Source: Deltaproteobacteria bacterium (GTDB lineage Bacteria > Desulfobacterota > Desulfomonilia > UBA1062). Taken from it: a stretch of 64,000 nucleotides of DNA. A program made the position numbers and the translations under genes. The first letter of the stretch is position 1, and every line of letters begins with the position of its first letter. The DNA is taken from contig JAHDQN010000034.1 of the NCBI GenBank assembly GCA_018433775.1, positions 20,479 through 84,478 on the forward strand, in the 5' to 3' direction. The notes beneath the pieces are model-generated. The model was not told the DNA's origin. It made no database searches and saw nothing but the letters and a program-made list of their open reading frames with translations. Of this stretch, positions 25,642 through 58,543 are shown piece after piece.

Positions 25642-25659
25642 GAAAAGGGGGAATATGTT

Positions 25660-25926: not shown

Positions 25927-25938
25927 GGACAGCAACCG

Positions 25939-26730: not shown

Positions 26731-26788
26731 GAAGAGAGCAGACACCGGACGCCCGTAATTTCTTGTACAGGAAAAGGGGGACATACTC

Positions 26789-28342: not shown

Positions 28343-29252
28343 TTCCCTGAAACGAAAAATCAAGAGCACCCAGGACCTGCTCTCGGTCGTGAAGACCATG
28401 AAGGCCCTGGCCGCGGTGAGCATCAGGCAGTACCAGCGGGCGGTCGAATCGCTCATGGACTACAACCGCACCGTCGAGATGGGGCTCCAGGTAGTCCTCA
28501 AGTCCCGGGAGGAGTCCGAGATCCAGCTCGGCATCACGCCCATGAACCAGGTGGGCGCCATCGTATTCGGGTCGGACCAGGGGCTGTGCGGCCAGTTCAA
28601 CACCCAGGTCGTGGCCCATGCCGTCTCGGAGCTGGACAGCCTGGGCATCCCGGCTTCGAGCCGGATTATGCTCGCCATCGGAGAGCGGGTGAAAGACCAT
28701 CTGGAACGCGCGGACCACGCCATCTACGACACGCTCTTCACCCCGAGCTCGACGGTGGGCATCACCCCCATGGTCCAGGAAATCATGATGATCCTGGAGG
28801 AATGGCACTTCACCCGTCAGATCCAGCACATCTACCTGTTCTACAACCACTATATCTCCGGGGCCACCTTCGCCCCCAGGACCATGCGGCTCCTGCCCAT
28901 CGACCGCACCTGGCTCACCGACATCCGGTCGCGCCCCTGGGAATCGGGCACCCTGCCCATGTATACCATGGACTTCGATCCCCTCTTCCTCTCGCTCCTT
29001 CGGGAATACTTTTTCGTGTCCCTGTTCCAGGCCTTCACCGAGTCCCTGGCCAGCGAAAACGCGAGCAGGCTCGCGGCCATGCAGAACGCGGAGAAGAACA
29101 TAGAGGACCACCTCGAGGAGATCTTCGCCGCCTTCCACCGCCAGCGCCAGATGACCATCACCGAGGAGCTCCTGGACATTGTCTCGGGCTACGAGGCCCT
29201 GGAGGCGGATACGCGGGTCATGAAAAAGGCGCCGCGGGGGGGCAGGCGATAA
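28329..29252 (+). CDS. atpG: N-type F1 ATPase gamma subunit
   Basis: 307 aa. N-terminal [29 protein letters not shown] and C-terminal [38 protein letters not shown] helices. Overlaps atpA by 14 nt. Confidence 0.92.
29041..29252 (+). repeat. Direct repeat copy A (atpG 3' end)
   Basis: Matches 58332-58543 at a constant offset of 29,291 nt with no indels. I count about 10 mismatches by eye, mostly at the two ends. Confidence 0.9.
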
Positions 29253-29531
29253 GCAGCGATTCAAGGTATGAATCTCTAAGGTAATCTTTAGAAAATATAT
29301 CTTATATATCACCTTATGCTGCAGGCTGAACCAGGTAGAGTTGTTGCGAGGCATTACAGACAGCCGCGCTCTTGAAATGCGCAAGATGAGTTACACAGAT
29401 ATCGTGAGGATTTCTTCTCTCGCAGGACCAACCCCCTTAAATTTGCTGCGAATGTCCTATTCCAGTTACGGGTATTTATCGTTATAGATCTACGGGAACT
29501 CAGGCTATAACATACCGGCTCCACGGTCGCC

Positions 29532-31256
29532 TTACATAACCTTACCCTGAATAAACTCCGCCAGGGGGTTGCCGTAGATTGAAAAGAACATACTTTCTTC
29601 GGCATGGTCCCTGACTTTTTGGTAGCTTTCCAGCAGGCTCACGATCGTGTTTGAGACATTGTATTCCATCACCGCGTACGGGTTATCCTTGGACACCGGC
29701 CAGCGATTCTCTTCAACAAGTCCCCTTGCATATTTGAAGGAGAGCATGAATGGGTTCAGCCAGTCGGAAAAAACATACTTGCTTACCCTGAGAGGGTGGA
29801 GATCCTTCAGAAAATCCGCTATGTCTTCATTCACGAACATGGCTACCCACGGGCTGATAAACGTATTATAAAACATGCTGTTCATTTCAGAAACATACTT
29901 GGCACGCGAGAAATCAGCGGTCTCTTCCCTGATCTCCTCCCGGCCTTCGTTCAATGCGGCAATATCTGCGATGTCCCGCGGCTCAAACCGGGTGTCGTAA
30001 TCCGATATCCCTTCCTTCTTCCCCTTGTCGATAATGATCATCTCATACAGGCCGGGAGACAGTCTGTTTATCAGATCAATGTTCTTGATGATCTCCCTGT
30101 GTTCTTTTTTCCCGGTCTTGGTCCCGACAAAGATGCCCAGGTGGCCCACCCGCTGGTCAATCATGTAGACGATTACCCTTTTCTGCTTTTTGATCTCATC
30201 CACTGACCGGTATTCCTTGATGATCCAATCGAGGGCCTGCTGGGGCGGTGTAATATTGTCTCCTTCGGAGCAGAAGAGCACCAGTGGTTTGGTGATGTTT
30301 TTCAGGTTCAGGATCTTCTTTCTGTCCAGCTTAAGCTTTCCCTGCTCGAGTTCATCACCCACAAACAGTTCCGCCAGGATGGCATGGATCTCCTCTTTGG
30401 TCATCTCGGAATAGCCGTCCCACCATTTCTCGAAGTTCAAGTATCGGTCCTCCTCGGTATCCACGTGCGAGTAGAGATAATACTGCTTTGTCCACAGGGT
30501 ATTTGCCGGATGAACGGATTCGAAATTCTCCTCGAGCCATGCACCGTCGAACTTGCCGTTGCCGAGGTCGGACAGGAAATCGGCAATCCAGACACCTCCG
30601 AGAAGCCCCCCGAGATACCGAAGCGGGTTCCTGCCCTCAACCCCGGACCAGTAGGACAGGGGCGTTCCGTTGAGCACGAGCGGCCCTGTCAGATCCGGAC
30701 GGTCCGCGCCGAGAAGTGCCACCGCCCAACCTGCCTGACAGTTGCCAATGACCGCCGGTTTCTCTGCATGCGGATGCAGTGTGGCAACCTCCTGTATAAA
30801 AAACTCCTGCGCCCTTTCCACATCCTCTAAGGTTTGTCCTGGCACGGGCTCGGGATGAAAGAGGATGAAGTAGACCGGGTGCCCCTGCTCCAGGGCATCA
30901 CCGATCTCGGAATCCTGTTTGAACCCGCCGATGCCCGGGCCGTTTCCCGCCCGGGGGTCGATCACCACGATGGGGCGCTTCGTCGGATCGATCGTTTGCG
31001 ATCTGCTCGGAGTTATTCTGGACAGATCATAATTTACGGGCCTCTCGAGGTCTGTTCCGCTGTGTATGACCTGATAGCCGAAGATGAGAACCGGCGGCTC
31101 ACCCTGCCGGATCGTCTGGAAAAAATTATCCCCCCGCTTTCTCAAGATGTCCAGGAAAATGATTGATCGCTGAACCGCATCCGTCAGATACTCACCGGCA
31201 TCTTTCACGAGATCTGTTACCTTCAGTGTTTTTAGCAAGATATCGTTATTCTCCAT
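29532..31256 (-). CDS. DUF3141 family protein (alpha/beta-hydrolase, PHA-synthase-related)
   Basis: 574 aa. RPIVVIDPRAGNGPGIGGFK, VIGNCQAGWAVALL (a lipase-box-like GxCxG), and a C-terminal helical domain. Visibly lower GC than the surrounding genes. Confidence 0.7.
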   Translation of the reverse strand: MENNDILLKTLKVTDLVKDAGEYLTDAVQRSIIFLDILRKRGDNFFQTIRQGEPPVLIFGYQVIHSGTDLERPVNYDLSRITPSRSQTIDPTKRPIVVIDPRAGNGPGIGGFKQDSEIGDALEQGHPVYFILFHPEPVPGQTLEDVERAQEFFIQEVATLHPHAEKPAVIGNCQAGWAVALLGADRPDLTGPLVLNGTPLSYWSGVEGRNPLRYLGGLLGGVWIADFLSDLGNGKFDGAWLEENFESVHPANTLWTKQYYLYSHVDTEEDRYLNFEKWWDGYSEMTKEEIHAILAELFVGDELEQGKLKLDRKKILNLKNITKPLVLFCSEGDNITPPQQALDWIIKEYRSVDEIKKQKRVIVYMIDQRVGHLGIFVGTKTGKKEHREIIKNIDLINRLSPGLYEMIIIDKGKKEGISDYDTRFEPRDIADIAALNEGREEIREETADFSRAKYVSEMNSMFYNTFISPWVAMFVNEDIADFLKDLHPLRVSKYVFSDWLNPFMLSFKYARGLVEENRWPVSKDNPYAVMEYNVSNTIVSLLESYQKVRDHAEESMFFSIYGNPLAEFIQGKVM

Positions 31257-31315
31257 AACTTATCCTCTCTTGTCTGGTAGGATCATGTACTGACTTCGCA
31301 TCTCATCCGACAGGC

Positions 31316-32248
31316 TCATACCGGCCTTCCAGCCTCCTGCTTTTCCCTGCGATGATTCACCAGGCTTGCAACAGCGCATGAGATTATCCGGGCACTGGGA
31401 GGATCGGACCTCGAGGTGAGGATGATCGGCGCCCTTACCCCCACAACGAAGCCCCCCATCCTGGCTTGGGCCAGATACTCCAGGTCTTTGCCAAGAATAT
31501 TGCCCGAGACCAGATCCGGCACGATCAGGATGTCCACATCCCCCGAAACCCTGCTTTTAATGCCTTTCACCTCGGCCGCCTCTGCCGAGATGGCGTTGTC
31601 AAAAGCCAGGGGTCCATCCACGACAGCGCCTGTGATCTGCCCCCGGTCCGACATTTTGGCCAGGCAGGCGGCGTCTATGGTGGAAGGAATTGCAGGGTTT
31701 ACATCTTCCAGGGCAGACAGGACGGCTACCTTGGGCTCTTCCACCCCAATCACCCTGCACATGTCAACCGCGTTCTGGGTGATATGCATCTTTGTGATCA
31801 GGTCGGGAGCAATGTTGACAGCGGCATCAGTAATATAGAGCAGCTTTGGGTACGTCTTGATATCGGCCAAGTATACATGCGAGACGCGCCTATTGCCCTG
31901 TAGATGGGCGGCGAGGATGGGATGGAGAAATCCAGCCGTATGGATATGGCCCTTCATGAGGGCCTTTACCGCACCCTTCTCAATGAGCTGAACGCCTTCC
32001 CTTGCCATTTCCGCATCTGTCGGGGCATGGATTATCGAATATTCTTTCCGACACTTCGTGGATTCAAGGAGATGATGAATGATCGATTCATCCCCGATCA
32101 GAACGGGATCGATAAATCCCGCGTCCGCTGCCTGGCAGGCCCCCTCGATTACATGCCGTTCATCGGCGTTGATGACGGCGACCGGCATGGCCTGCAGCTT
32201 ACTCGCCGCTTCAAGGACATCTTCGAAACTTCTGAACTCAATGCTCAT
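31316..32248 (-). CDS. Phosphate acetyl/butyryltransferase (short PTA_PTB family)
   Basis: About 310 aa. AMPVAVINADERHVIEGA, ALMKGHIHT, VYLADIKTYPKLLYITDAAVN, ILIVPDLVSGNILGK. Start at ATG 32248 overlaps the ack stop by 11 nt. Confidence 0.8.
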   Translation of the reverse strand: MSIEFRSFEDVLEAASKLQAMPVAVINADERHVIEGACQAADAGFIDPVLIGDESIIHHLLESTKCRKEYSIIHAPTDAEMAREGVQLIEKGAVKALMKGHIHTAGFLHPILAAHLQGNRRVSHVYLADIKTYPKLLYITDAAVNIAPDLITKMHITQNAVDMCRVIGVEEPKVAVLSALEDVNPAIPSTIDAACLAKMSDRGQITGAVVDGPLAFDNAISAEAAEVKGIKSRVSGDVDILIVPDLVSGNILGKDLEYLAQARMGGFVVGVRAPIILTSRSDPPSARIISCAVASLVNHRREKQEAGRPV

Positions 32249-33431
32249 GCTCTTTCCCCTTTGCTCCCCCGAAGAGCAGCTCCCTGGTATGCCGCGCAAT
32301 CAGGAGATCTTCGTTTGTACGGACCACCCGCACGATGCAGGGGGTGTCATCCAGTGAAATGATGCCCGCGTGGGCATCGTTTTTGTCCGGATCGAGCTGT
32401 ACTCCCAGATAGTCGAGCCCATGGCAGATCATCCATCGGACAGGGGCCGCCCGTTCGCCTATGCCTCCCGTGAACACGAGCACATCCAGGCCGTTCAGGA
32501 CCGCTGAGAGCGTGCCGATAAACTTACGCGCAGTGTAGCAGAACAGCTCGATCGCCTCGGCTGCATGTGGTTCAGAGTCCCGCTTGTCCAGCAGGGTTTT
32601 CATATCGGGGCTGATCCCTGAAACCCCGAGAAGACCTGTCTGCTCATTGAGGAAAAGATCGAGCCGATGTGCGTCATAGCCTTTCTCATTCATGAGATAG
32701 ATGAGGAAGCCAGGGTCGAGGTCCCCGCACCTCGTACCCATCATTAGCCCTCCCACTGCGGAAAATGACATTGTGGTATCTTGGGGGGCACCGTTTATCA
32801 GTGCCGCCATGCTGGCGCCATTGCCCAGATGCGCAATGATGGATTTCCCGGCCAATGCGTTGCCCAGGGTGCTGACGATATACTCATACGAGAGCCCGTG
32901 AAACCCGTACCGGTGTACGCCCTCATGCCGAAGGCTGCGCGTGAGGGGAACCCACTTGGCTATCTCGGGCATGCTGCAGTGGAACGCGGTATCGAAGCAG
33001 GCAACCTGCCCGAGACCGGGATAGTGGGCGGCAACCGCCTCAATGCCCTTGATCTCGGGCGGGATGTGCAGCGGTGCCCTGGGAATGAACCTTCTCAAAT
33101 CAAGCAGCAGCCCGGGTGTGACTATCTCAGGGGCGTAGCGGTCCGGGCCCCCGAAGGCCACCCGCTGGCCGACACCGTCCGGGGCAGGGAGATGGTGCTC
33201 ATCTAATGCAGTGGTGAACATGGCCTTCACAGCCGACATGTGGTCTGGGAAATCGGTGTGCTTGTCCACCACGCGACTTCCTTTCCCGTCCCTGATCCAG
33301 AGCCAGCCTCCCGGCAACCCGATTCGCTCTACCTCCCCCTCGACAACCAGCTCCTCTGTTTCCGCTAGAAGGTAGAGGGCGAACTTCATGGAAGAGGAGC
33401 CGCTGTTGATACAGAGAATATGATGTTTCAC
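32238..33431 (-). CDS. ackA: Acetate/propionate kinase family
   Basis: ILCINSGSSSMKFALY, RYGFHGLSYEY, IIAHLGNGASMAA, FTGGIGERA. GTG start preceded by GGGAGGG. Confidence 0.85.
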   Translation of the reverse strand: MKHHILCINSGSSSMKFALYLLAETEELVVEGEVERIGLPGGWLWIRDGKGSRVVDKHTDFPDHMSAVKAMFTTALDEHHLPAPDGVGQRVAFGGPDRYAPEIVTPGLLLDLRRFIPRAPLHIPPEIKGIEAVAAHYPGLGQVACFDTAFHCSMPEIAKWVPLTRSLRHEGVHRYGFHGLSYEYIVSTLGNALAGKSIIAHLGNGASMAALINGAPQDTTMSFSAVGGLMMGTRCGDLDPGFLIYLMNEKGYDAHRLDLFLNEQTGLLGVSGISPDMKTLLDKRDSEPHAAEAIELFCYTARKFIGTLSAVLNGLDVLVFTGGIGERAAPVRWMICHGLDYLGVQLDPDKNDAHAGIISLDDTPCIVRVVRTNEDLLIARHTRELLFGGAKGKEHEH

Positions 33432-33490
33432 TTAGAAACCCTCCCGGTTCTATTACAGCCCCATTGATCACTCCATTGACACGGTCGGTG

Positions 33491-35980
33491 TTATCCCCTT
33501 GCCAGCGCTGCAGCATCAATCGATTTCCTTGCCGAAGGCAGGACAATTTTGGTCGGATTGAAAATCCGGTACGCGACGAGCTTTACCCGGTCGTTCACGA
33601 GAAACCACGCCAGGGCATAGACCCAGATAAGAATCGCCCATTTCCAGCCGATGGGAACCATGAACCATCCGTAAACCGCGGCTATGGTCGCCAGCACCTT
33701 TGTGATCACCGCCGACCAAAACAGCAACGGCGCTGGGCGGATAGACCAGAACGGACCGCGCGTGCGTGTCAGGAAGATCGTCAGATGACCGGCCACCGCA
33801 AGCTTGAGAAATATGAATGTCTGGATCGTGTTCCGGCTAAGATGGAAGGTTTGCTCGCCAAGGTAAAACAGGCCGAAGGTGGCGATCACGCCGGCGATGC
33901 CCAGCACGGTGGATATCCCCAGGACAAGCTGCATGTTCCACGCCTCGGGCCGGTTTGCATAGTGCACGTTGTCGTAGGCGATGGCGAGAATCGGGGCGTC
34001 GTTTATCAGGACCAGGAGGACAATCATCACCGCAGTCACGGGATAGAAGTTGAATACCAGGATTGAGAATGTCATGAACAGCAGCACGCGGATGGTTTCC
34101 GCAATGCGGTAGATCGCGTAGCTGTTCATCCGCTGAAATGCCTTGCGGCTTTCTTTGATGGCATCGATGATCACGGACAGACCCGGACTCATCAGCACCA
34201 CGTCGGCCGCCGCGCGGGCTGCATCCGTAGCGCCCGACACGGCGATACCGGCATCCGCCTTCTTCAGCGCGGGTGCGTCGTTCACCCCGTCGCCGGTCAT
34301 GCCCACAATGTGCCCGCGCTGCTGAAGGACATTCACGATATGGAACTTGTGCTCGGGGAAAACCTGGGCAAAGCCGTCCGCTTTCTCGATGGACTCAGCC
34401 AGCCGTGCGGCCTCGTGATGCTTCGTATCGCCGAAGCCGCTTGCTTCGAGGATATTTATACCCAGCCCCAGTTTCTTGGCTGTCTCCCGGGCGATGGCCA
34501 TCTGATCCCCGGTAACCATCTTGACGTTCACGCCCATCTGACTCGCGGTCGCGATCGTTGCCCTGGAGTCCTCACGGGGCGGATCGAACAGCGGGATCAC
34601 GCCCAGGAACCTCCATTGCCCCTTATCGTCCGTACGTGCAACGCCCAGGGAACGGTAACCCCGAACCGCGAATTCATCGACCGTCTTCTCGACAAGGGTT
34701 TTTATCTCTCCGATATCGGATGACAGGGCCAGGATCACCTGCGGGGCGCCTTTGGTTACCTTGAATTCCATCCCGGCCTTGGACCTGATGTCCGCCTCGG
34801 TGCGTTTATGGACCGGATCGAAGGGCTGAAAACGCACCACATCGAAGTCCTTCAGCACCTCCTCATCCTTCAGCCCTCCCAGGACGGCCATGTCGATGGC
34901 ATCCTGGTTCTCGGCGAGTGATGCCAGGGCCGCACTCAGAATGACCTGATCGGCTGGTACGCCGCCAATGCTCATCACCTCGCCCATGGTCAGCTTGTTC
35001 TGCGTCAGGGTACCTGTCTTGTCCGAGCACAGAATGTCCATGCCCGCAAGCTCCTCGATGGATGCCAACCGGCTGACAATGGCCTGTTTTGCGGCAAGCA
35101 CCCGCGAGCCCACGGCCATGGTGACGGTCAGTACTGTGGGCATGGCTACCGGAATCGCAGCAACGGTCAGCACGAGGGCGAATTGCAGGGTCGTTACGAA
35201 CGGATCGCCACGGAACAGTGCCACGGTCAGGATCAGGGCCACCAGAACCACCGCCAGCACGATGAGGTAGTCGCCGATCTTCAGGACCGCTTTCTGAAAA
35301 TGGCTGACGGTGTGGGCTTCCTGCACCATCTGCGCGGTCTTTCCGAAAAAGGTATGCGTACCCGTGGCATATACCATGGCCTCCATTTCACCCTGCCGGA
35401 TTATGGACCCTGAGAATACCGCATCGCCTGATGTGCGCGTCACGGGAAGAGACTCTCCCGTCAGCGCCGACTGATCCACCTCCATGGGCTCGCCATCGAG
35501 CAGACGGGCATCGGCCGGCACGACATCGCCGAGACGAAGGCGGATGACGTCACCGGGCACCAGCCCACGCGCTTCCAGGGTGGTCCATTTCCCGTCCCGC
35601 CGGACCCTGGACTTGAGTGCCAGCCGAGCCTTGAGCGCGGCGACGGCGTTGCCCGCCTGGTATTCCTCCCAGAAACCGACTGTGGCATTGGCCACGAGGA
35701 GCACGAGGATGATGAGAAAATCCGACCAGTGCCGCACTATCGCCGAGAGAACCACCGCGACCTCGATCATCCACGGGATCGGACCCCAGAAATAGGAGAG
35801 GAATTTAAGCAGGGGGTTGACCTTCTTTTCGGCAATCTCGTTCGGCCCGTAGCGTTCCAGCCGGCCCCGGGCATCGGCCTGGGACAGACCCTCCTTCGAC
35901 GATCCCAGCTTCTCATACAGCTCGGGCAGAGCCAGGGACTTGAGATCGTCCCCTGTTCCTGACTTATTGCCTGATTTCAT
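33491..35980 (-). CDS. P3A-type plasma-membrane H+-ATPase-like P-type ATPase
   Basis: GLSQADARGRLERYGPNEI, AAIPVAMPTVLTVTMAVGSRVLA, CSDKTGTLTQNKLT, MTGDGVNDAPALKKADAGIAV, and TM6 LINDAPILAIAYD (acceptor Asp conserved). ATG 35980 is preceded by AAGGAGA. Confidence 0.85.
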   Translation of the reverse strand: MKSGNKSGTGDDLKSLALPELYEKLGSSKEGLSQADARGRLERYGPNEIAEKKVNPLLKFLSYFWGPIPWMIEVAVVLSAIVRHWSDFLIILVLLVANATVGFWEEYQAGNAVAALKARLALKSRVRRDGKWTTLEARGLVPGDVIRLRLGDVVPADARLLDGEPMEVDQSALTGESLPVTRTSGDAVFSGSIIRQGEMEAMVYATGTHTFFGKTAQMVQEAHTVSHFQKAVLKIGDYLIVLAVVLVALILTVALFRGDPFVTTLQFALVLTVAAIPVAMPTVLTVTMAVGSRVLAAKQAIVSRLASIEELAGMDILCSDKTGTLTQNKLTMGEVMSIGGVPADQVILSAALASLAENQDAIDMAVLGGLKDEEVLKDFDVVRFQPFDPVHKRTEADIRSKAGMEFKVTKGAPQVILALSSDIGEIKTLVEKTVDEFAVRGYRSLGVARTDDKGQWRFLGVIPLFDPPREDSRATIATASQMGVNVKMVTGDQMAIARETAKKLGLGINILEASGFGDTKHHEAARLAESIEKADGFAQVFPEHKFHIVNVLQQRGHIVGMTGDGVNDAPALKKADAGIAVSGATDAARAAADVVLMSPGLSVIIDAIKESRKAFQRMNSYAIYRIAETIRVLLFMTFSILVFNFYPVTAVMIVLLVLINDAPILAIAYDNVHYANRPEAWNMQLVLGISTVLGIAGVIATFGLFYLGEQTFHLSRNTIQTFIFLKLAVAGHLTIFLTRTRGPFWSIRPAPLLFWSAVITKVLATIAAVYGWFMVPIGWKWAILIWVYALAWFLVNDRVKLVAYRIFNPTKIVLPSARKSIDAAALARG

Positions 35981-36085
35981 GAGCGCTCTCCTTTTGATGG
36001 TAAAGCCTGGACAGATTGGTGACATAATTATAAATAAGATCTCAAGGTCCGAATCCAATGTTTTGCGAGGCCGTATCCGTCCCGA

Positions 36086-44806: not shown

Positions 44807-44975
44807 GGCCTTCTTATCGCGGTTCACGTCGTCCTCCCGGACACATAAAAGACAATGCCTGACCCGTGGCATGGCCCGAGTGATAGGGAACGTGACGGGA
44901 AAAGTTCCGAACGTTTCCGCGCATGCCGAGATCGAGCAGGTATGCGCTGCAAGAAGAATCTTTTCATGTCGCACC

Positions 44976-46415: not shown

Positions 46416-46518
46416 CCGGAGATGAGCGTACCAACGAGAAAACCCCTACCTCCCGACCGCTACGGGCGGTGCCATTAGCCCTGAAGACATCGAACGGTTC
46501 GCTCCACACGGCCCGGTC

Positions 46519-49305: not shown

Positions 49306-50232
49306 TCAGTAGATCCTCCTTATGGTATACGAAGGCCTGCGTTTCACCTCCCGGTAGATTCTGCCAACATACTCGCCCATGATGCCGAACGCGAAGAACT
49401 GTGCCCCCACAAGGAAGAACATGACGGCAAACAGGGTGAACACACCTTCGGCGGCCCATGATGCGCCGAAGTACAGGCGGGCCACGGACAGGAACGCGCC
49501 GAACCCGACGCCAAACAGCGCGAGGAAAAACCCGGTGTAGAGCATGAGCTTCAGGGGAAACTCCGAGAAGGAGGTGATGAGGTCGAAATGAAGGCTGACG
49601 AGCTTCGCAAAGGAGTAGTTCGACTCGCCTGCAAAGCGGTCGGCGTGTGAGACCTCGATCTCGGTGATGCGCTTTGCGAAGGTTGTCGCAAGCGCGGGGA
49701 TAAAGGTAGAGTGCTCCCGGCTGCCCACCATGCGCTCGACCACGTGCCTCCGGTAGGCCCTGAGCATGCAGCCCCAGTCGTGCAGGTCCACGCCCGTGAT
49801 CTTCCGGGTCACGGCATTGACCATCCGGCTGGTTACTTTCCTGAAGGTGGTGTCCTTGCGGCACGCCCTGATCGTACCGACCACCTCGTAGTCGCCCTCC
49901 TCCATGGTCTGCACCAGCCGGGGGATCTCCCGGGGCGGGTTCTGGAGGTCGGCGTCCATGGTTACTACGATATCTCCATCACTGCTCTCGAAACCGGCGA
50001 ACACGGCTGCATGCTGGCCGTAGTTGCGCATCAGCTCAACCACCCTGACCTTTTCGCCCGCATGCTCCTGCAGCACCTCAAGAGAGCCGTCGGTGCTCCC
50101 GTCGTCCACCAGCACGATCTCGTACTCGCGCCGCATGCCTTCCATGACCGGGATGAGCTGCTCGAAAAGCATCCGCAAGCCCTGTTCCTCGTTGTAAACC
50201 GGAATCACAATCGATATCTTGCCCAAGTCCAT
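49306..50232 (-). CDS. arnC: Undecaprenyl-phosphate 4-deoxy-4-formamido-L-arabinose transferase (GT2)
   Basis: ISIVIPVYNEE, IVLVDDGSTDGS, NYGQHAAVFAGF, TMDADLQNPPREI, two C-terminal TM helices. RBS GGAGAGGAG. Confidence 0.85.
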   Translation of the reverse strand: MDLGKISIVIPVYNEEQGLRMLFEQLIPVMEGMRREYEIVLVDDGSTDGSLEVLQEHAGEKVRVVELMRNYGQHAAVFAGFESSDGDIVVTMDADLQNPPREIPRLVQTMEEGDYEVVGTIRACRKDTTFRKVTSRMVNAVTRKITGVDLHDWGCMLRAYRRHVVERMVGSREHSTFIPALATTFAKRITEIEVSHADRFAGESNYSFAKLVSLHFDLITSFSEFPLKLMLYTGFFLALFGVGFGAFLSVARLYFGASWAAEGVFTLFAVMFFLVGAQFFAFGIMGEYVGRIYREVKRRPSYTIRRIY

Positions 50233-50362
50233 CAGCTTCCCGTATACTCCTCTCCGGAGAAAGTTCTCTCCTGCTCTTTCAAGCCGCCCACCTCGCTGGC
50301 CTGTCTTTGTCCCATGTCCCGTACCAGTGCTTCGATCTCCCGCTTCCTGATAAAAGGGTTGC

Positions 50363-51934
50363 TTATCGGGACGGGTTCACCATCCACAGCTCGATCTCTC
50401 TCTTGGCATCGCCTCCCACTCTCATGAGAAGGCTTGCCATGGAGGTGATCTCTCTCTTCAGGCCTGCGTCCAGCCTGCCCGGAAGCACGATGATATAGTC
50501 TGCCTCACGGTTGTTGATGGCCCTGATAAATTTATCGTCTTCCGTATAATTCTCCACCGGAAACCCTCCGTAGAAAGGCCCGAGGGCTTCTATCGTCTCG
50601 GTGAGCCGGTAGCCGATGACCTTGTGGTGCGACACCGCTTCGCCCAGATCAATGAAGAGCTGCTTGTAGCTTTTCAGCTGATCGATCTGACTGAAGGCGG
50701 CAGGGGTCCACAGAACGAGGGTCAGTGCCCAGCCCACGACGGCAAAATAAGGAAGGGACCGTCCACACCGCCTCCACACGAAAAGGAAGACCCCGGCATT
50801 GACGATCCCGATGCCCAGCGCCGCCCACCACGCGCCACCGGCCGCCACGAACCCGACGGGCAAGGCCACAGAGCAGGTGAGGATCAGTGCCGTTACGAGC
50901 CAGAGAAGTGCCCTTTCCCACGTGCGGGAACCCTCCGGTTTCCACATCGAAATCCACCGGCCGATGATGACTGCCATGGCCGGATACATGGGCAGGAAAT
51001 AGATTCCCCGTTTCGTAGAGGCTATGCTCAACAGGACCAGTCCTCCCAGGAACCACGAGTACAGGAACTTCTCCGTACCACCGGGTGCCCGTGTCCTGAT
51101 GAATGCCGGAACGAGCAGAATCGACCAGGGCAATGCATCGACGGGAACGCTCGTGAGATAGTAGTACAGGGGTCTGACATGGCCGCCGTGGTAGATGGTT
51201 CCGGGCATGAACCTGCCAAACTGGTTGTAGATATAGAAGGTATAGAGGAAGTCGTATCCTCCCCTGGCGTAGAGAATCCAGCCCCAGACGGCCATGAAAC
51301 ACATGGTGAGCGGAATTCCCCATGCCGCCCCGCTCTTCGCGATAATGCCGGCATCACGCTGCCACACCATGAATATGAGAATGCCAGCCCCGGGTATGGC
51401 GAGACCGATGATGCCCTTGGTCATGAAGGCCAGACCGATCATGATCCAGAACACGGGATATCCCCACCTCAGCATTCCCCGGTATGCAAGGATGAACGCG
51501 CACATCCCGGCCGTGATGAAGAAGACGAGTCCCACGTCCACGAGAATCTTGTGGGATGACTCAAAGAACCTCACGAAGGTTGCCAGGACGAGCACGGACA
51601 GTGCCGCCGTCTCATCGGAGTAGAGCCTGCGCGCGGTAAAGAAGACCGTCAGCAGCGTGCCGAAGGCGAACAGGAGCGAAGCAACCCTGCCGGCCTCCTG
51701 AAAATGCCTGCCGAAGAGCCTGCATGACGCGACCGCAACCAGGTAGTAGAGGGGCGGCTTTTCCAGGAAAGGCCTGCCCGCCAGGCTCGGTATGAGGCAC
51801 TCGCCCGTGTCGGCCATCTCACGCGTGATCTGGGCCTCGCGCGGCTCGTCGGGCGTCCAGAGCGAGTGGCCGAATACGCCGGTGAGCTGCAGGAAGAGGA
51901 CGAGAACGAGGGCTGCCCTGCCGATCGGCTTCAT
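50363..51934 (-). CDS. arnT: Ara4N transferase-like GT-C glycosyltransferase
   Basis: LWTPDEPREAQITREMADTGECLIPSLAGRPFLEKPPLYYL N-terminal signature, about 12 TM helices. First gene of the arn run. Confidence 0.8.
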   Translation of the reverse strand: MKPIGRAALVLVLFLQLTGVFGHSLWTPDEPREAQITREMADTGECLIPSLAGRPFLEKPPLYYLVAVASCRLFGRHFQEAGRVASLLFAFGTLLTVFFTARRLYSDETAALSVLVLATFVRFFESSHKILVDVGLVFFITAGMCAFILAYRGMLRWGYPVFWIMIGLAFMTKGIIGLAIPGAGILIFMVWQRDAGIIAKSGAAWGIPLTMCFMAVWGWILYARGGYDFLYTFYIYNQFGRFMPGTIYHGGHVRPLYYYLTSVPVDALPWSILLVPAFIRTRAPGGTEKFLYSWFLGGLVLLSIASTKRGIYFLPMYPAMAVIIGRWISMWKPEGSRTWERALLWLVTALILTCSVALPVGFVAAGGAWWAALGIGIVNAGVFLFVWRRCGRSLPYFAVVGWALTLVLWTPAAFSQIDQLKSYKQLFIDLGEAVSHHKVIGYRLTETIEALGPFYGGFPVENYTEDDKFIRAINNREADYIIVLPGRLDAGLKREITSMASLLMRVGGDAKREIELWMVNPSR

Positions 51935-52269: not shown

Positions 52270-53046
52270 TTATGTTGTTTTCGCGGCCGAGCTCGAAAGG
52301 GGTGTTTCATGGTCTTGTGCCCCGGGGCGCCTGCAGCCGCAATCACGGGAGTTGTCATCATGAGCCTCGGCAGGCATTTTTGTGTTGATCATTCTCCTGA
52401 GGATGATGATTGCGGCCAGGACCAGCACGGCGAACCCGACCTGCTTGAGGTTGCCCTCCAGGCCCCCGCTCCCGAAAGCGGCAAACACGACCGCAAGGGG
52501 CATGAAACCCAGCAGCGATCCCTGAACGTATGAGACGAACGGCACTTTGCAGCTTCCACAAAAAAGGCTCATGAGCGTGGAGTTCGAGAACGGGAAGAGC
52601 CTCCCATACAGGACCCACCAGAATGCATTCTCCTCTAACCGCTTCCGCCAGTACTCCAGCCGGCTTCCCATCCGCCTCTCCACTACCTGTGCGAGCAGAA
52701 ACCTGCCGGTGCAGTATACTATCGATGCACCCAGCAGAGATGCCAGGATCGAGAGCAGGGAACCGGTAACCGCCCCATAGACGATCCCGCCCACAGCGCT
52801 TGCCCACAGCCTTGGCACGCCCAATGCGATGATGCCTCCCCCGGCCAGAACGAACGCAAACACGGAAATCAGGCGGCCGGCATGCGAACTTCCTCCCTGC
52901 AGCAGGGAGCGGAAGGTCTGCACATCCAGAAGAAGCGTGCGGACTCCGGTTTTTTCCAGAATGAGTGTCGCCGCAACGAAGAATGCCGCCACCGCAGCCA
53001 CACGGCAGATGTCTCCGGCGAGCTTTCCGTCGAATCTGCTGCTCAT
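52270..53046 (-). CDS. TVP38/TMEM64 (DedA-superfamily) membrane protein, copy 2
   Basis: Paralogue of 38848-39570, collinear and roughly three-quarters identical by eye. ATG 53046 forms an ATGA overlap with the upstream GT2 stop. Confidence 0.75.
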   Translation of the reverse strand: MSSRFDGKLAGDICRVAAVAAFFVAATLILEKTGVRTLLLDVQTFRSLLQGGSSHAGRLISVFAFVLAGGGIIALGVPRLWASAVGGIVYGAVTGSLLSILASLLGASIVYCTGRFLLAQVVERRMGSRLEYWRKRLEENAFWWVLYGRLFPFSNSTLMSLFCGSCKVPFVSYVQGSLLGFMPLAVVFAAFGSGGLEGNLKQVGFAVLVLAAIIILRRMINTKMPAEAHDDNSRDCGCRRPGAQDHETPLSSSAAKTT

Positions 53047-53780
53047 TGCGATTTCCTCACCGTGTATTCCAGAGACCGCATTCTCAGCCAGGCAACTCCT
53101 GCCAGGTCGGCAATGCCGGCCCAGAGCCTGCTGTTGATACCTCTTCCATACTTGCTGACTCCCCTCAGCCGCGGGCGATGGTTGACCGGAGTCTCTGCCA
53201 CGGTATAGCCTGCCATGATCACAAGGGCGGGGAAAAACCGATGGGCGTTCCTGAAAAACCGGATACGGTGGAGACAGCTCCTCCTGAACACCCGCATCGA
53301 GCAGCCCACATCGGTAATACTGTCTTTCAGCACACCTGAGCGGACACGGTTTGCGACGAGGCTCGATAACTTCCGGAGAACGCTGTCGGCCCTGTTCCTC
53401 CTGATTCCGCACATCATGTCAATGCCTCTCGCCCTCAGCTCTTGGATCAGTGGCAGGATATCACGGGGATCATTCTGCCCGTCTCCGTCGAGAGTCGCGA
53501 TGAGCTCTCCCTGCGCAGCCTCGAATCCTGCCTCCAGGGCTGCCGACTGTCCGCTGTTGGGTGTAAGATGAAGGGTCCGGAAACGATCATCCTGCCGCGC
53601 GAGGGTGTCCATGATCTGCGGCGTCCGGTCCGTTGACCCGTCATTCACCATGATGAGCTCCCACATGAGCCCATCCTGTGCCGAAAGCACCTCCCGCACC
53701 TCTCCGCAAACGCTCTCAACGGATTCTTCTTCGTTGTAGAATGGTATAACCACACTCAGGACAACAGGGTATGCACTCAT
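53043..53780 (-). CDS. GT2 polyprenyl-phosphate glycosyltransferase (GtrB-like), copy 2
   Basis: LSVVIPFYNEEE, LIMVNDGSTDRT, NSGQSAALEAGF, TLDGDGQNDPRDI. Paralogue of 39567-40331. RBS GGAGAGG. Confidence 0.85.
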   Translation of the reverse strand: MSAYPVVLSVVIPFYNEEESVESVCGEVREVLSAQDGLMWELIMVNDGSTDRTPQIMDTLARQDDRFRTLHLTPNSGQSAALEAGFEAAQGELIATLDGDGQNDPRDILPLIQELRARGIDMMCGIRRNRADSVLRKLSSLVANRVRSGVLKDSITDVGCSMRVFRRSCLHRIRFFRNAHRFFPALVIMAGYTVAETPVNHRPRLRGVSKYGRGINSRLWAGIADLAGVAWLRMRSLEYTVRKSQ

Positions 53781-54071
53781 GGCGGTACCTCTCCATACTT
53801 CTCTGACGCGCTGTGGTCCCCTGCCCGATGAAATATGCAGGTTCCCCTTCTCTGCCTGTGCATCGCGATTCGGTGATGATGCCGGATCTCGGACGAGTCT
53901 GTACGACCCCGGGAATCAAGAGCAGGATGACCACTGATGCCACCATGATCATCCAGATCTTCAGGATTACGGCACCCAGGGTATTTTGTACCATGCATCC
54001 CTTATGGCGCATGTTGCTTGCAGGGAGCTTGTCGGAAGATTACGGGTGTGTAATGCGCGATTCCTGCTGGT

Positions 54072-55487
54072 TCAGCCAACGGGTACGGTAAGGGGGAGGA
54101 TGACGGTAAAGACGCTGGCCTGTGCCGGAGTGCTCTCCACCCTGATATCCCCTTTGTGAGCGTGCACGATGGCCTTTACATGGCTCAGTCCCAGGCCGTT
54201 TCCCGGTGTGGTTCGACTCCGGTCACCACGGTAGAACTGTTCGAAGACCCGTGGCAGGTCCTGATCCGCTATACCGATGCCGGTATCGGCAACCACCACG
54301 ACAGCATGAGTGTCCCTTTCCTCGAGCGACAGGGTAATACTCCCGCCGGCGGGAGTGAACTTGAAGGCGTTGTCCAGCAGATTAGAGATCATCCTCTGGA
54401 GCTGCGGGAGATTCCCCCGTACGAAAAGCCTCTCGCGGGGAACATTTACCTGGAAAGCCACCCCCTTGTCTTCTGCAATGGCCTGGAAGATTTCTTCCGT
54501 GCTTTCGATCAGCCTGCTGATATTCACGTCTTCTTTTATGGCATCCTGGACACCAGCTTCGGTCATGGCGATGTCGAGCATGACATTGATCATTCCCACG
54601 AGGCGATCGCTCTCTTCCACGACGATTTCGGCCATCTCCCGATAATCATCCACGGTCTGCTGCCGGCCCGTCATGGTGGTCTCGGCGATGCCCCGTATCC
54701 TGGTCAGGGGGCTCCTGAGATCATGGGCGATGTGGTTTGTCACATCCTTCAACTCTGTGACTACGCCGCGGATCCGCTCCAGCATATCATTGAACGCCTG
54801 CGCGAGATTGTTGATCTCTTCCCCCTCGTTTCCCAAAGGGACCCGGCTCACCAGATCCGCCTTGCCGATGCTCACTGCAGTCCGGGTGACCCTCTCCACG
54901 CCTGCCATGGCCCGTCTCGCCATGAACCATCCCATGACGCCGCCGCTCACCAGCATGATCATAACGGCCAGGGCGGAGCCCTCCCGGTAGACCTCCATCA
55001 GTTCCTCGTCGTCCTGCAGTGTGCTGCCTATCTGCAGGATTCCTCCTCCGGCAATCCTTTTCGATGCCACCCTGGCATTGTTGCTCTTCCCAGGCATCTG
55101 CAGGGTTTCGATCACCTCATCCCCTTCCCGGAGATCCTCCCTGCCTCCGGGCGGATGAATGCTGCCCCAGGAGCTCATATCTGTCGTCACCAGGACCTCG
55201 CCGCGAGGGTCCATAACCCGGATGAACATCCTGTTCGTCCCTTCCGATTCGATCTCGAAGTCGATCTGGCGCCTGAGCTCTTCGATGCCCCGGACATGGT
55301 AAATGGTCTCCATTTCCCGGATCTCATTCGTGAGATCTTCATCCATCCTGATGGCGAGACTCTTGGTGAGGGCAAGGGAAATAATCCCGAAAAAGGCGAC
55401 GGAGACCAGGGTGATCAGAATCGCATACCGCAGGGTGAGACGGGATGTGACGGTCTTGAAAAAGCTACTCGCGCTGCTCGAGCACAT
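54072..55487 (-). CDS. Sensor histidine kinase (2 TM, periplasmic domain, HAMP, HisKA, HATPase)
   Basis: H-box HIAHDLRSPLTRIRG. N/G boxes LLDNAFKFTP, DTGIGIADQDLPRVFEQFYRGD, GNGLGLSHVKAIV. Overlaps the RR stop by 23 nt. Confidence 0.9.
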   Translation of the reverse strand: MCSSSASSFFKTVTSRLTLRYAILITLVSVAFFGIISLALTKSLAIRMDEDLTNEIREMETIYHVRGIEELRRQIDFEIESEGTNRMFIRVMDPRGEVLVTTDMSSWGSIHPPGGREDLREGDEVIETLQMPGKSNNARVASKRIAGGGILQIGSTLQDDEELMEVYREGSALAVMIMLVSGGVMGWFMARRAMAGVERVTRTAVSIGKADLVSRVPLGNEGEEINNLAQAFNDMLERIRGVVTELKDVTNHIAHDLRSPLTRIRGIAETTMTGRQQTVDDYREMAEIVVEESDRLVGMINVMLDIAMTEAGVQDAIKEDVNISRLIESTEEIFQAIAEDKGVAFQVNVPRERLFVRGNLPQLQRMISNLLDNAFKFTPAGGSITLSLEERDTHAVVVVADTGIGIADQDLPRVFEQFYRGDRSRTTPGNGLGLSHVKAIVHAHKGDIRVESTPAQASVFTVILPLTVPVG

Positions 55488-56145
55488 ACCCCACTCCCCG
55501 TATGGTGTGGATCAGCTTTTTGTCGAACTGGCGGTCGATCTTGTCGCGGAGGCGGCATATGCCAGTTTCCACGACATTGGTCTGGGGATCGAAGTTGTAG
55601 TCCCACACATGCTCGATGATCATGGTCTTCGACAGCACGTTCCCGGCGTTGCGCATGAGATATTCCAGAAGGGAAAACTCGAGCGCCTTGAGCTCGATGG
55701 GCTTCCCCGAGCGGAATGCCTTTCTCTTGATGAGATCCAGGGTGAGATCCGCCACGGTCAGGACCGTGGTCATTCCTGTGGAGGAGGTCCTGCGCAGATG
55801 TGCCTGGATGCGGGCCAGAAGCTCGGAGAAGGCAAAAGGCTTGGTCATGTAGTCATCACCTCCCCGCTGAAGGCCTTTCACCCGGTCGTCCACCGTGCCC
55901 TTTGCGCTGAGCACGATGACCGGGAAGGTGACCTTGTGCCGGCGTATTCGTTCGATCAGAGAGAGGCCGTCAAGGCCGGGGAGCATGATATCGACGACAG
56001 CAATATCGAACGACTCGCTCAGGGCCAGGGAAAGTCCCGTGTCTCCATCAGGAGCATGCTCCACGACGAAACCCGCCTGCTTCAGCCCCCTTACAATGAA
56101 CAGGGCTGTTCGTTCGTCATCTTCAACCAGCAGGCATCTCATCAT
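55465..56145 (-). CDS. OmpR/PhoB-family response regulator
   Basis: MRCLLVEDDE...DIAVVDIMLPGLDG...KPF receiver domain plus a winged-helix output domain (LKALEFSLLEYLMRNAGNVLSK...IHTIRGVGYVL). Start at the ATG pair 56145/56142. Confidence 0.9.
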   Translation of the reverse strand: MMRCLLVEDDERTALFIVRGLKQAGFVVEHAPDGDTGLSLALSESFDIAVVDIMLPGLDGLSLIERIRRHKVTFPVIVLSAKGTVDDRVKGLQRGGDDYMTKPFAFSELLARIQAHLRRTSSTGMTTVLTVADLTLDLIKRKAFRSGKPIELKALEFSLLEYLMRNAGNVLSKTMIIEHVWDYNFDPQTNVVETGICRLRDKIDRQFDKKLIHTIRGVGYVLEQRE

Positions 56146-56331
56146 GTATCTCCATCGCTCGAGCCACAAGATCTCCAGTCCTCGCGACCCTGTTCCCAGC
56201 CTGCCTCTGAAACACCCACAGGGGGAAAGGCCGAGCTCGGGAATTATCGTTTTTGTCCGGCTTCACTTCCATATCCTGCACCTGGAGGTTCATGGTCCAC
56301 CTTGGATCACTGATTCTGCTACCGACATAGC

Positions 56332-57894
56332 TCAGCGGGTCTGCCGTTTCAAGGGGGAATACACGTAGTAGACCTTCTCCTGAACCGGGATCGTTTCGAC
56401 AAGGCGCAGACCCAGACGCGACCCGTCCAGAACCGAGGTGGTTATGACGGCTGCCCCGGCCGGGTTGACTTTCGGAATGGAGGCCTCTCCCTCCGGGAGC
56501 GGCCGGATCTTCCTTCCCGACGCCCAGATCAGTTCAGGAGACGGATCTCCGATGAAATAGAGTTCTCTGCCCTCAATCTCCGGGTTATCCCGGAGTTCCA
56601 TGAGTACGATAGTGCCGTCCCTGCCCAGGATCTCCTCCTTCAGCGGCGTGATCAGCACCAGACACAGACAGAGCCCGGCAACGACCACCAGATGGGTATT
56701 CCTGGTATGCTTCCTGATCAGGTTCGAAAGAATCACGCCGCCCGCGACCGTGAGACCGAATGCACCCGCGACCGCGGCAGGCGTATGATTATACCGGAAG
56801 ACAAGCATACCCGCGACAACCAGAAAAGCGATGCCCGAAACCATGCAGAAAGGCCCGTAGACGAGTTTCCACGCCCGGTCTCCAGTCTCTCGCAGGCGAA
56901 GGATCGCCATCGCCGAGACGGCAGCGGCCGGAACAAGGGCAGGCATAAGGTAACGGATCTTCTTCTCAGGAACTATGGAGAGAAAGACGATGGTCAGGAT
57001 GAACCAGAAGACGAAAAGCTTCTCACTCCTGCTCCAGCCCTTCCCGACAAGGGGAGCGACAGCCGCGTAGAGGAGAAAGGACAGCCACGGGCCCGTCACC
57101 CAGTGAAGATTGAGCAGGTAGTACCACGGTGGCTCACGGTGATAGGAGAACCAGTTGGCGGTCTCCCTGGATGCCACCGCCATCGCATCCTGTGGTGTGT
57201 TGAAGTACACGTAGAGAGGCCAGGTCCCGGCCAGGAGGACGGCGATGCCGGCTGCAGGGACAAACCACTTCATGTTTGCCTTGAGGTCACCTGCTCCGCA
57301 GGCCATCCAGTAGCCCGCCAGAAAGGGGATGAACATGGCCCACAGTGCCACCGGCCCCTTGCTGAGAAAGGAGAAGGCCATGAAAAACGTGAGCAGGAGA
57401 AGGTAGGGCATCTTTCCTTCCCTGCGTGCGAACACCTCTGCCAAGGCCCAGATCGCGCCGGCCATGGATGTGACGGCGTAAATATCCCAGAAGTTTCTCC
57501 TCCCGGTCCAGAGAAAGAGCTGGCCTGTTGCGAGCACGAGCACGGACGTGACGGCAAGCCTCCTGTCCCCGGTGATTCTCCTGACCACCAGAAAGGTGAA
57601 CAGGACGAGCAGGACCCTGCATATCCCTGCGGGAAGGCGATTGGCGACGAGGTCTGCATCGGTCCCGGCGGCTTTCATGGCAAGGGCGGTGATCCAGGTG
57701 GGCAACGGAGGCTTGGCGATCCTGAGTTCGCCGTTCATGGTCGGCAGGAGCCACGAGCCGTCCTGCAGGATCTCACGCGCGGTGATATAGTTCCTTGCCT
57801 CCATGTTGTTGACCGTGGGGAGATCACTGCCCACAAAAACGCAAACGAAAACTGCTGCTGTGAGAAGAACCATGCCCGGTATCCTGAACTGCAT
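56332..57894 (-). CDS. GT-C fold glycosyltransferase (ArnT/GT39-like), copy 3
   Basis: NNMEARNYITAREILQDGSWLLPTMNGELRIAKPPLPTWI N-terminal signature, about 12 TM helices, soluble C-terminus. ATG 57894 is preceded by GGAGAGAGGGAG. Confidence 0.8.
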   Translation of the reverse strand: MQFRIPGMVLLTAAVFVCVFVGSDLPTVNNMEARNYITAREILQDGSWLLPTMNGELRIAKPPLPTWITALAMKAAGTDADLVANRLPAGICRVLLVLFTFLVVRRITGDRRLAVTSVLVLATGQLFLWTGRRNFWDIYAVTSMAGAIWALAEVFARREGKMPYLLLLTFFMAFSFLSKGPVALWAMFIPFLAGYWMACGAGDLKANMKWFVPAAGIAVLLAGTWPLYVYFNTPQDAMAVASRETANWFSYHREPPWYYLLNLHWVTGPWLSFLLYAAVAPLVGKGWSRSEKLFVFWFILTIVFLSIVPEKKIRYLMPALVPAAAVSAMAILRLRETGDRAWKLVYGPFCMVSGIAFLVVAGMLVFRYNHTPAAVAGAFGLTVAGGVILSNLIRKHTRNTHLVVVAGLCLCLVLITPLKEEILGRDGTIVLMELRDNPEIEGRELYFIGDPSPELIWASGRKIRPLPEGEASIPKVNPAGAAVITTSVLDGSRLGLRLVETIPVQEKVYYVYSPLKRQTR

Positions 57895-58331
57895 TACTCC
57901 CTCTCTCCTGCTCGTCACCCTCTGTCTCCAAGACCCGAAAAGCTTTTCTACGCCTGCAGTTGGTCCGGAAGCTTGTTGCGAGCTGCTGATCCAAAGGCAT
58001 GCCGCACTACGCCGAGTTCTTGCAAGCTGGTACGCCCACGGGAAAAGGACGCGCGGCAACAAGCCCGCGGCCGCAAGATGCCTTCTCTGCACAGCGCCCT
58101 GTTTGCCCACGGTGTTCCCGGTGGTGCAACTCTTTCTCCGGGAACGCGTACCCCTCGACAACGCGCTGCCCTGTTTCAAGAACCCGTTGGAGCCCTCTCG
58201 TGCACGTGGACACAATGTATACCGAGAATGGACCATTCAGCTTACACCAGCTTTGTCCAAAGATTACCATCCTGTTAACTTGACCCCTTGGAGAAAAACC
58301 CGGGGCAATCTCCCGATGGTGAAGATCATGA

Positions 58332-58543
58332 AGTCCCTGGTCCGCGAAAACCCGAGCAGGCTCGCGGCCATGCAGAACGCGGAGAAGAACATAGAGGACC
58401 ACCTGGAGGAGATCTTCGCCGCATTCCACCGCCAGCGCCAGATGACCATCACCGAGGAGCTCCTGGACATCGTCTCGGGCTACGAGGCCCTGGAGGCGGA
58501 TACGCGGGTCATGAAAAAGGCGCCGCGCGGGGGCAGACAATAG
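58332..58543 (+). pseudogene. atpG: Orphan atpG 3' fragment = direct repeat copy B
   Basis: Encodes ...[69 protein letters not shown], versus the atpG tail ...[14 protein letters not shown]...RGGRR*. There is no atpG body upstream. Confidence 0.9.

Follow-up and report, generated by a model that had tools for sequence, protein, structure and literature searches.

A 29.3-kb gene block between duplicated atpG tails in an uncultured deltaproteobacterium, and a possible origin of its homology arm

The window analysed here is a 64,000-nucleotide (nt) stretch of contig JAHDQN010000034.1 (Deltaproteobacteria bacterium, assembly GCA_018433775.1, positions 20,479 to 84,478 of the forward strand). Downstream of its N-type (alternate) F1F0 ATPase operon lies a block of 21 minus-strand genes that is bracketed by two direct copies of the 3' end of atpG, the last gene of the operon. 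To judge from alignment with the two closest genomes, the block is a strain-specific insertion relative to them. It is most likely homology-driven and not self-mobile, and an even chance is given to one particular route, a homology-anchored (Campbell-type) insertion of chromosomal cargo together with its neighbouring atpG tail. The event is of a known kind, and the main point of this report is the origin of the homology arm.

The two repeat copies and the empty site

The repeat copies and the non-coding sequences at their borders were located as follows (L006 and L001 are the two closest genomes).

29041-29259, plus strand: repeat copy A (attL-like), made up of the final 70 codons of the functional atpG with their TAA stop, and the next 7 nt
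29253-29531, no strand: AT-rich spacer, left end of the inserted DNA, guanine-plus-cytosine (GC) content 0.45
57895-58331, no strand: right-end spacer of the inserted DNA, 437 nt, upstream of the ArnT-like gene
58332-58550, plus strand: repeat copy B (attR-like), a displaced atpG tail with the native TAG stop
58544-58593, plus strand: native atpG 3' untranslated region (UTR), found directly 3' of atpG in L006 and L001

Copies A and B were aligned by blastn over 219 nt without gaps, with 12 mismatches (94.5% identity, E=3e-96) and a constant offset of 29,291, which confirmed the 212-nt repeat without indels described in the initial annotation; no other self-match of the repeat in the window was better than E ~1. 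In the coding part 10 of the 212 nt differ, 4 of them in the central 175 nt, and the counts made earlier by eye were correct. Seven of these 10 differences lie no more than 22 nt from either repeat end (P=0.0007 for random placement, by a post hoc test). Divergence was 3/22 at the left edge, approximately 6/23 at the right edge and 4/175 in the core, where every difference is synonymous, as expected if both tails diverged within functional genes. The longest run of identity within the repeat is about 56 nt.

Relatives were collected by an AtpG-based scan of species-representative genomes, in which the neighbours were Syntrophaceae/Syntrophales-type metagenome-assembled genomes (MAGs). The two closest, L006 (approximately 95% nt identity) and L001 (approximately 92%), match the window collinearly between 18.4 kb and the atpG 3' end, and again from position 60566 onward, at uvdE. 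Between these points both carry an empty site consisting of atpG, a TAG stop, about 50 nt matching 58544-58593, and then private filler before uvdE. The block is therefore absent from the otherwise identical backbone of the nearest genomes. The 4-7 kb of downstream sequence available for L006 and L001 contained no block gene, DUF169 gene or second atpG tail, so an orphan tail does not persist in relatives that lack the block, and a block gene adjoined atpG in none of 21 loci. The initial annotation had expected an empty site in which atpG is followed directly by the DUF169 gene; empty sites were found, but not of that form, the region with the DUF169 and response-regulator open reading frames (ORFs; 58594-60565) being likewise private to this strain. 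A DUF3141 scan of GTDB representatives did not find the block elsewhere in close relatives, and the matches of a GTDB response-regulator scan were dominated by generic OmpR-family proteins. The L001 genome holds only an ArnT-like paralogue of 53-55% identity, on another contig.

Copies A and B were compared with the corresponding sequences of L006 and L001. Differences unique to copy A are confined to the stop codon and beyond: its left part is native-like, and divergence from the relatives begins at about 29246-29252 (TAA vs TAG, then the sequence beyond). In copy B the right edge and the sequence beyond are native, while at the left edge three differences inside the repeat are unique to B, copy A there being identical to both relatives. 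That edge contains 4 nonsynonymous changes in 8 codons (ESLASENAS to KSLVRENPS) at residues that are invariant in all relatives. Since the B-only differences are at the left and the A-only differences at the right, each copy has its mismatches at the edge nearest the block. Such a combination of native outer sides and diverged inner edges would be the look of attL and attR, or equally of a single crossover between a resident and an incoming tail, and the attL/attR-like footprint proposed in the initial annotation was borne out by these hybrid copies. The two copies also share six derived states missing from L006 and L001 and are mutually closest. Copy B differs from copy A at 10 of 212 positions, compared with 18 of 212 from the relatives, and was not nearer to any other paralogue; neither copy appears to derive from another atpG paralogue.

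Copy B keeps its reading frame and ends in TAG, and no atpG homology was found 5' of 58332. Its description as a displaced tail lacking an atpG body thus stands, to be amended in that copy B lies inside an intact ORF of 72-75 amino acids (aa) with its own ATG at 58328 or 58316 (58316-58543, plus strand); the public gene call is the 75-aa protein P0241. The synonymous-only core of this ORF reflects either recent displacement, gene conversion, or selection as a small protein. More speculatively, a free C-terminal helix of the gamma subunit might be made from this ORF and modulate the N-ATPase. The DNA after both copies is AT-rich, as noted earlier, with a GC content of 0.45 after copy A and 0.41 after copy B (58544-58907) against approximately 0.59 overall. 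The left spacer, 29253-29531, showed no homology to the atpG 3' UTR of the relatives and gave no Pfam match in six-frame translation.

Three of the four junction sides recur with 100% identity in Logan contigs of an independent assembly (SRR13787005).

L022: copy A edge to block, ending at 29207
L223: block to copy B edge, reaching 58382, across 58331/58332
L023: copy B edge to DUF169, ending at 58498

At k=31 the contigs are expected to break within the repeat core, and they do so; 29207 and 58498 are equivalent positions of the repeat. The contigs are 10-13.7 kb long in the block and only 2.9 kb long in the right flank.

Native arrangement of the cargo between atpG and rlmH

The part of the block nearest copy B was designated cargo module 3 and consists of the following genes, assigned with Pfam.

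52270-57894, minus strand: cargo module 3
52270-53412, minus strand: DedA/VTT
53043-53780, minus strand: GT2
54072-55487, minus strand: histidine kinase
55465-56169, minus strand: OmpR-type response regulator
56332-57894, minus strand: ArnT-like GT39

The genes for the closest homologues of the ArnT-like protein lie just downstream of an N-ATPase atpG, in convergent orientation. The order in L035-L037 (AtpG 71% aa identity) is atpG, PAP2, DedA, GT2, kinase, regulator, ArnT-like, rlmH-rsfS-nadD-proA-proB-obg; L034 (AtpG 84% aa identity) has the same order with 3.6 kb of extra genes beside atpG. No orphan atpG tail was present in L034 or L035-L037. Module 3 is 70-79% identical in nt to these loci, and its response regulator 82-89% identical in aa. 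The divergence of the module is approximately in step with that of the ATPase, the identities to L034 and L035 being 89% and 82% for the regulator and 88% and 82% for AtpA.

Convergence of atpG with rlmH-rsfS-nadD-proA-proB-obg was seen in lineages with AtpG down to 64% identity to that of the window. Adjacency of atpG and rlmH without the module was found in L002, L009, L010, L198 and L199. This adjacency is probably ancestral in the family. Since the window, L001 and L006 have uvdE in place of the rlmH side, a rearrangement breakpoint lies just after atpG in their clade.

The right-end spacer of the block carries further signs of the same arrangement.

58219-58285, minus strand: conserved element of about 70 nt, aligning with the ArnT-rlmH spacer of L035, L034 and L041
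58260-58277, minus strand: second box, upstream of the ArnT-like gene and inside the conserved element
54036-54053, minus strand: box TTACA-N5-GTAATCTT, upstream of the GT2/DedA genes

Beyond the conserved element the spacer continues for about 46 nt, taking in a terminator-like hairpin (58300-58316, minus strand), and its junction with copy B at 58331/58332 falls approximately where rlmH would end in the atpG-cargo-rlmH arrangement. Because the spacer is homologous to the ArnT-rlmH spacer, the block corresponds to the whole atpG-to-rlmH cargo plus the last 70 codons of atpG. A donor tail of the L034/L035 type was considered and rejected, as copy A retains the C-terminal extension of the window's clade up to the stop codon.

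Counterparts of the conserved element lie at approximately 9815-9890 in L035 and 4590-4660 in L034 and also occur in L041, making four lineages in all. It matched no Rfam family and may be a promoter/operator or a structured leader. The pattern TWACA-N5-GTAATCTT has exactly two matches in the window, with 0 expected by chance, and boxes are found at the two equivalent places in L035 (9821-9847 and 13734-13760). The boxes are a putative direct-repeat binding site for the OmpR-type response regulator of the module; their conservation supports orthology of the module and suggests autoregulation by the regulator.

Proposed insertion by homology and its competitors

In the insertion proposed here, the donor chromosome would have been of the type atpG-cargo-rlmH, and the segment would have been cut inside atpG and just short of rlmH. 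The recipient would have been of the type atpG-uvdE and would have been entered by recombination within the shared atpG tail. The incoming DNA would have brought its own copy of that tail, about 219 nt long, because in the source genome atpG and rlmH are the native neighbours of the cargo on its two sides. The resident atpG body would then have been joined to the incoming tail and stop to form copy A, and copy B would be the resident tail, shifted 29.3 kb downstream together with its TAG stop and 3' UTR. Host homologous recombination, either as a single crossover of a circularised chromosomal fragment or as an equivalent homology-anchored event, would do this with no dedicated integrase, and the direct repeats would now permit RecA-mediated loss of the block. 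A single event of this kind would account for the repeats, the hybrid copies, the intact gene, the displaced stop and UTR and the origin of the tail, with no need of a recombinase. We infer the circular intermediate, RecA as the enzyme, and a gain here rather than a loss in the relatives. The two features looked for in a Campbell-type insertion were both found, namely copies that are hybrids of resident and incoming sequence and a source arrangement with the cargo beside atpG (L034, L035-L037). Of the two mechanisms offered by the initial annotation, the single-crossover insertion was the better fit; the other, a tRNA/tmRNA-style island, was unsupported in view of the host-like composition of the block, its ordinary cargo and the occurrence of part of it as the native atpG neighbour in relatives.

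Several observations weigh against this insertion. The six states shared by A and B require that the donor tail came from a genome closer than L006 or L001, or that the core underwent gene conversion. The donor tail would have to be almost identical to the resident one, clade-specific states included, yet close relatives of the cargo proteins are nowhere to be found, 71% (DUF3141) and 63% (ArnT-like) being the best identities. The nonsynonymous left edge of copy B is not what a fresh tail of a working donor gene should show, and an old, unselected homology arm of a long-lived element fits it better. Both points give some weight to a degenerate e14-like or cis-mobilizable element, and gene conversion of the core at a later time would be another way to account for them. 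No donor genome and no circular form were seen. Finally, the independent assembly yielded no sequence for the side that joins the atpG body with copy A, which lacks that confirmation because exact-protein look-ups of AtpG, AtpA, AtpD and the response regulator returned nothing on record. A possible reason for the gap in the left flank is that several close strains share the backbone and only one of them carries the block.

A bolder, rather doubtful extension is that such a block acts as portable cargo without a recombinase. Cargo lying between core genes would use a captured tail of the neighbouring gene as its homology arm, rebuild the target and so enter strains of different gene order, after which host recombination would excise and re-insert it through the 219-nt repeats.

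Searches for mobile-element functions were uniformly negative. With Pfam, no integrase, transposase, relaxase, replication, phage or transfer gene was found among the 21 block genes, in agreement with the initial annotation, and no recombinase in six-frame translations of the six larger gaps or in 30 other large ORFs of the window. No terminal inverted repeats were present at the block ends, and no tRNA or other Rfam family at its borders. Megablast of 24.7 kb of the block gave only a trivial 84-nt plasmid match and no phage match. A transposon or insertion sequence was rejected, there being no transposase, no terminal inverted repeats and a duplication of 219 nt rather than a short one. Foreign composition was rejected as well. 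The GC content of the block (0.51-0.64) is like that of the flanks, and the tetranucleotide correlation between block and flanks (r=0.971) exceeds that between two halves of the left flank (0.958), so that the compositional check recommended earlier left the block indistinguishable from its surroundings. Of the marks of an integrative element, the bracketing direct repeats and an empty site in close relatives were found; an integrase inside, genes for phage, conjugation or mobilisation functions, and similarity to a known element were not. The search for other insertions at N-ATPase atpG genes, also recommended, yielded no second orphan atpG tail or element in approximately 50 other loci (21 GTDB, 23 metagenome and 9 exact-23-mer loci).

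Campbell-type single crossover and homology-facilitated illegitimate recombination are usually documented for plasmids or laboratory constructs. As in such integration, the length of the block's repeat would equal the shared homology, the copies are part resident and part incoming, and no dedicated recombinase is needed; the source context, with cargo beside atpG in L034 and L035, would in addition account for the arm. The block differs from the documented cases in that its circular fragment and the role of RecA are presumed. Classic flexible genomic islands differ from the block in that a double crossover within both flanking core genes exchanges them without duplicating a gene tail. They and other plasticity hotspots resemble the site of the block in that the gap after atpG is filled differently in L006, L001 and the window, and in other lineages either the module or nothing lies between atpG and rlmH. 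Islands targeting tRNA or tmRNA genes share integration at a gene 3' end with restoration of the displaced part by the element, but have an integrase beside the att site and RNA genes as targets.

The closest architectural parallel to the block is a prophage. The e14 element of Escherichia coli K-12 starts 165 nt before the end of icd, and the displaced icdC pseudogene differs at 12 of the 165 positions (PMC13626634). In e14 (and phage 21) at icd, as in the block, the target is a protein-coding housekeeping gene, the element supplies the tail and stop, and the native tail is displaced to the far end. The e14 repeat is likewise long (165 nt with 12 differences, compared with 212-219 nt with 10-12), and recombination between its copies restores a chimeric gene. 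Hence two of the three points that had been called unusual in the block, the protein-coding target and the long repeat, are not unusual. Unlike the block, which has no recombinase, no phage genes and ordinary chromosomal cargo, e14 carries phage genes along with intE and xisE and is excised when the SOS response is induced. Cis-mobilizable elements (CIMEs) keep attL and attR after loss of integration and transfer genes (PMC6323972). They resemble the block in having flanking direct repeats with neither integrase nor transfer genes. CIMEs are, however, defined relative to an integrative and conjugative or an integrative and mobilizable element that uses the same att site, none of which is known for the N-ATPase atpG, and the block's repeat is far longer than typical att cores.

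These parallels lend substance to the idea that the block is a degenerate site-specific integrative element of the e14/phage 21 or CIME sort, whose attP would have borne an atpG-tail arm and whose tyrosine or serine recombinase would have been lost later or would lie elsewhere in the genome. The architecture matches that at icd, where e14 shows 12 differences in 165 nt as against 10 in 212 in the block; the outer, unselected parts of an old attP arm would resemble the decayed, nonsynonymous edge at the left of copy B and the diverged one at the right of copy A; and elements that keep attL and attR without integration genes are a recognised class (PMC6323972). This origin is nevertheless judged unlikely: no integrase or remnant of one was detected in the block, its gaps or the other large ORFs of the window; phage, conjugation and plasmid genes, and matches to collections of such elements, were absent; none of the roughly 50 N-ATPase loci has another element at the atpG tail; the one orphan-looking tail that was pursued proved to be a frameshifted operon; and a native atpG neighbour within the cargo explains the tail more simply. 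The polarity might also be reversed, the two-tail structure being older than the split of the window, L006 and L001, with the block lost from the relatives and the core kept alike by gene conversion. A pop-out between the copies would yield exactly the observed empty site, with the left of A joined to the right of B; edges far more diverged than the core are expected under concerted evolution of an old repeat; and module 3 has diverged from L034 and L035 at the pace of the ATPase genes, as vertical inheritance beside atpG would allow. Such a history would need at least one or two independent precise losses as well as gene conversion, would still require an insertion with duplication to make copy B, and finds in the L001 genome only the distant ArnT-like paralogue on another contig. 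It is considered distinctly unlikely.

Two further accounts were given very little weight. If a replication or repair accident near the atpG stop had duplicated 212-219 nt in situ during an illegitimate insertion, with copy B drifting since, the mutual closeness of A and B and their six shared derived sites would follow without any donor tail. The clustering of mismatches on the block-proximal edges of both copies (P=0.0007), the synonymous-only core of copy B and the position of the left junction at the stop codon would all be unexplained, and this account is highly improbable. The least credible is an assembly artefact, in which a short-read assembler would have threaded an empty-site chromosome and a separate block-bearing molecule or strain through the near-identical core. 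The longest identical run of about 56 nt, the Logan contig breaks at the equivalent positions 29207 and 58498, and the absence of exact full-length AtpD, AtpA and AtpG from the record for the independent assembly are compatible with it. On the other side, the junctions of the block with the edges of both copies are real in that assembly, and a 29-kb circle without replication genes would not persist. Even under such an artefact a block molecule with a hybrid atpG tail would exist, so that recombination at the tail would stand.

Block genes, flanks and biological meaning

All 21 genes of 29532-57894 are on the minus strand, as the initial annotation had reported, and each received a Pfam assignment. 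The cargo consists of ordinary chromosomal genes for envelope modification and ion pumps. Modules 1 and 2 were delimited as follows, with all assignments from Pfam.

29532-38608, minus strand: cargo module 1
29532-31256, minus strand: DUF3141 (module 1)
31316-32299, minus strand: phosphate acetyl/butyryl transferase (module 1)
32238-33431, minus strand: acetate/butyrate kinase (module 1)
33491-36058 and 36086-38608, minus strand: two P-type cation ATPases (module 1)
38848-51934, minus strand: cargo module 2, an arn-like (4-amino-arabinose-type) lipid modification set
38848-40331, minus strand: DedA/VTT and GT2 (module 2)
50363-51934, minus strand: second GT39/PMT_2 of module 2

The remainder of module 2 comprises LPG_synthase_TM, a DegT aminotransferase, a GT39/PMT_2, VTT-PAP2, a deacetylase, an epimerase, a formyltransferase and a GT2. 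The set of kinase, transferase, DUF3141 and P-type ATPase of module 1 recurs as a unit in L222, and a set like module 2 occurs at a different chromosomal locus in L050 (same MAG as L004). In a collection of 5.8 billion proteins the closest homologues of the two border cargo proteins were 71% (DUF3141) and 63% (ArnT-like) identical, unlike the flank proteins, which are 85-99% identical to those of L001 and L006.

The GT2 and DedA/VTT pairs at 38848-40331 and 52270-53780 are paralogous, with 72-80% nt identity at an offset of 13,476. The former is nearer to L035 (76.9% vs 74.1%) and the latter to L034 (77.4% vs 73.3%). These differing affinities hint that the block was put together from two related clusters.

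The operon upstream of the block and the region downstream of it were annotated as follows; the nine operon genes were assigned with alternate-ATPase NCBIfam models.

22504-29252, plus strand: N-type (alternate) F1F0 ATPase operon, nine genes in the order atpD-C-Q-R-B-E-F-A-G
22504-23886, plus strand: atpD
23876-24265, plus strand: atpC
24258-24578, plus strand: atpQ-like
24621-24959, plus strand: atpR-like
24925-25641, plus strand: atpB
25660-25926, plus strand: atpE
25939-26730, plus strand: atpF
26789-28342, plus strand: atpA
28329-29252, plus strand: atpG, complete 307-aa gamma subunit (TIGR03323, 338 bits vs a cutoff of 282)
58594-60565, no strand: low-GC strain-specific filler with DUF169 and a CheB-fragment/receiver ORF
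58908-59717, minus strand: DUF169, part of the filler
59929-60483, plus strand: CheB-fragment/receiver ORF, truncated, part of the filler
60604-61485, minus strand: uvdE, first gene of the conserved right flank, 87-95% aa identity to L001 and L006

The models TIGR03305, 03166, 02230, 03165, 03306, 03322, 03321, 03324 and 03323 all scored above their cutoffs. Since the nine genes match these models in order, the operon encodes an N-type ATPase; it is syntenic with those of L001 and L006 at 92-95% nt identity.

The gap between atpG and uvdE is a plastic spot. L006 has there a private 257-aa ORF (11020-11793, minus strand) that by the look of its sequence is S-adenosylmethionine methyltransferase-like, and L001 has approximately 0.7 kb (10955-11640) with short ORFs only. 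In the window the 2 kb of 58544-60565 have a GC content of about 0.51-0.52 and are not present in L001 or L006. In the ORF at 59929-60483 a receiver domain is joined to the initial 60 positions of a CheB methylesterase domain, and the ORF appears to be what a deletion has left of a larger chemotaxis-type protein.

A tmRNA gene was found at 3574-3929 (minus strand; 208 bits in Rfam, tag peptide ADDYSYALAA) and is unrelated to the block. Such genes are classic sites of island integration.

Short gamma-tail ORFs are present in the protein database. The only case on a long contig that was opened, P0243 (86 aa), comes from L224 (ENA ERZ25039554 contig_102382), where an N-ATPase operon at 3555-10261 has most of its genes in fragments, probably from indel errors in the assembly. 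P0243 was rejected as an orphan atpG tail because it belongs to this frameshifted operon. Here too, an ArnT-like and a GT2 gene lie 2 kb downstream of the operon, both co-oriented with it. Short gamma-tail ORFs in databases are thus unreliable evidence of orphan tails.

For an island that lacks an integrase and is flanked by direct repeats, comparison should first be made with the native neighbourhood of the target gene in related genomes. In the present case an uncultured syntroph has acquired or retained 21 genes beside its sodium-type ATPase operon without mobile-element machinery. They comprise an arn-like lipid modification pathway and the two-component system that belongs to it, a pair of P-type ATPases, and a DUF3141/Ptb/Buk set. 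If the proposed origin of the homology arm is true, the block would be a clean natural case of an accessory region moved between strains of different gene order by means of a captured gene tail and host recombination.

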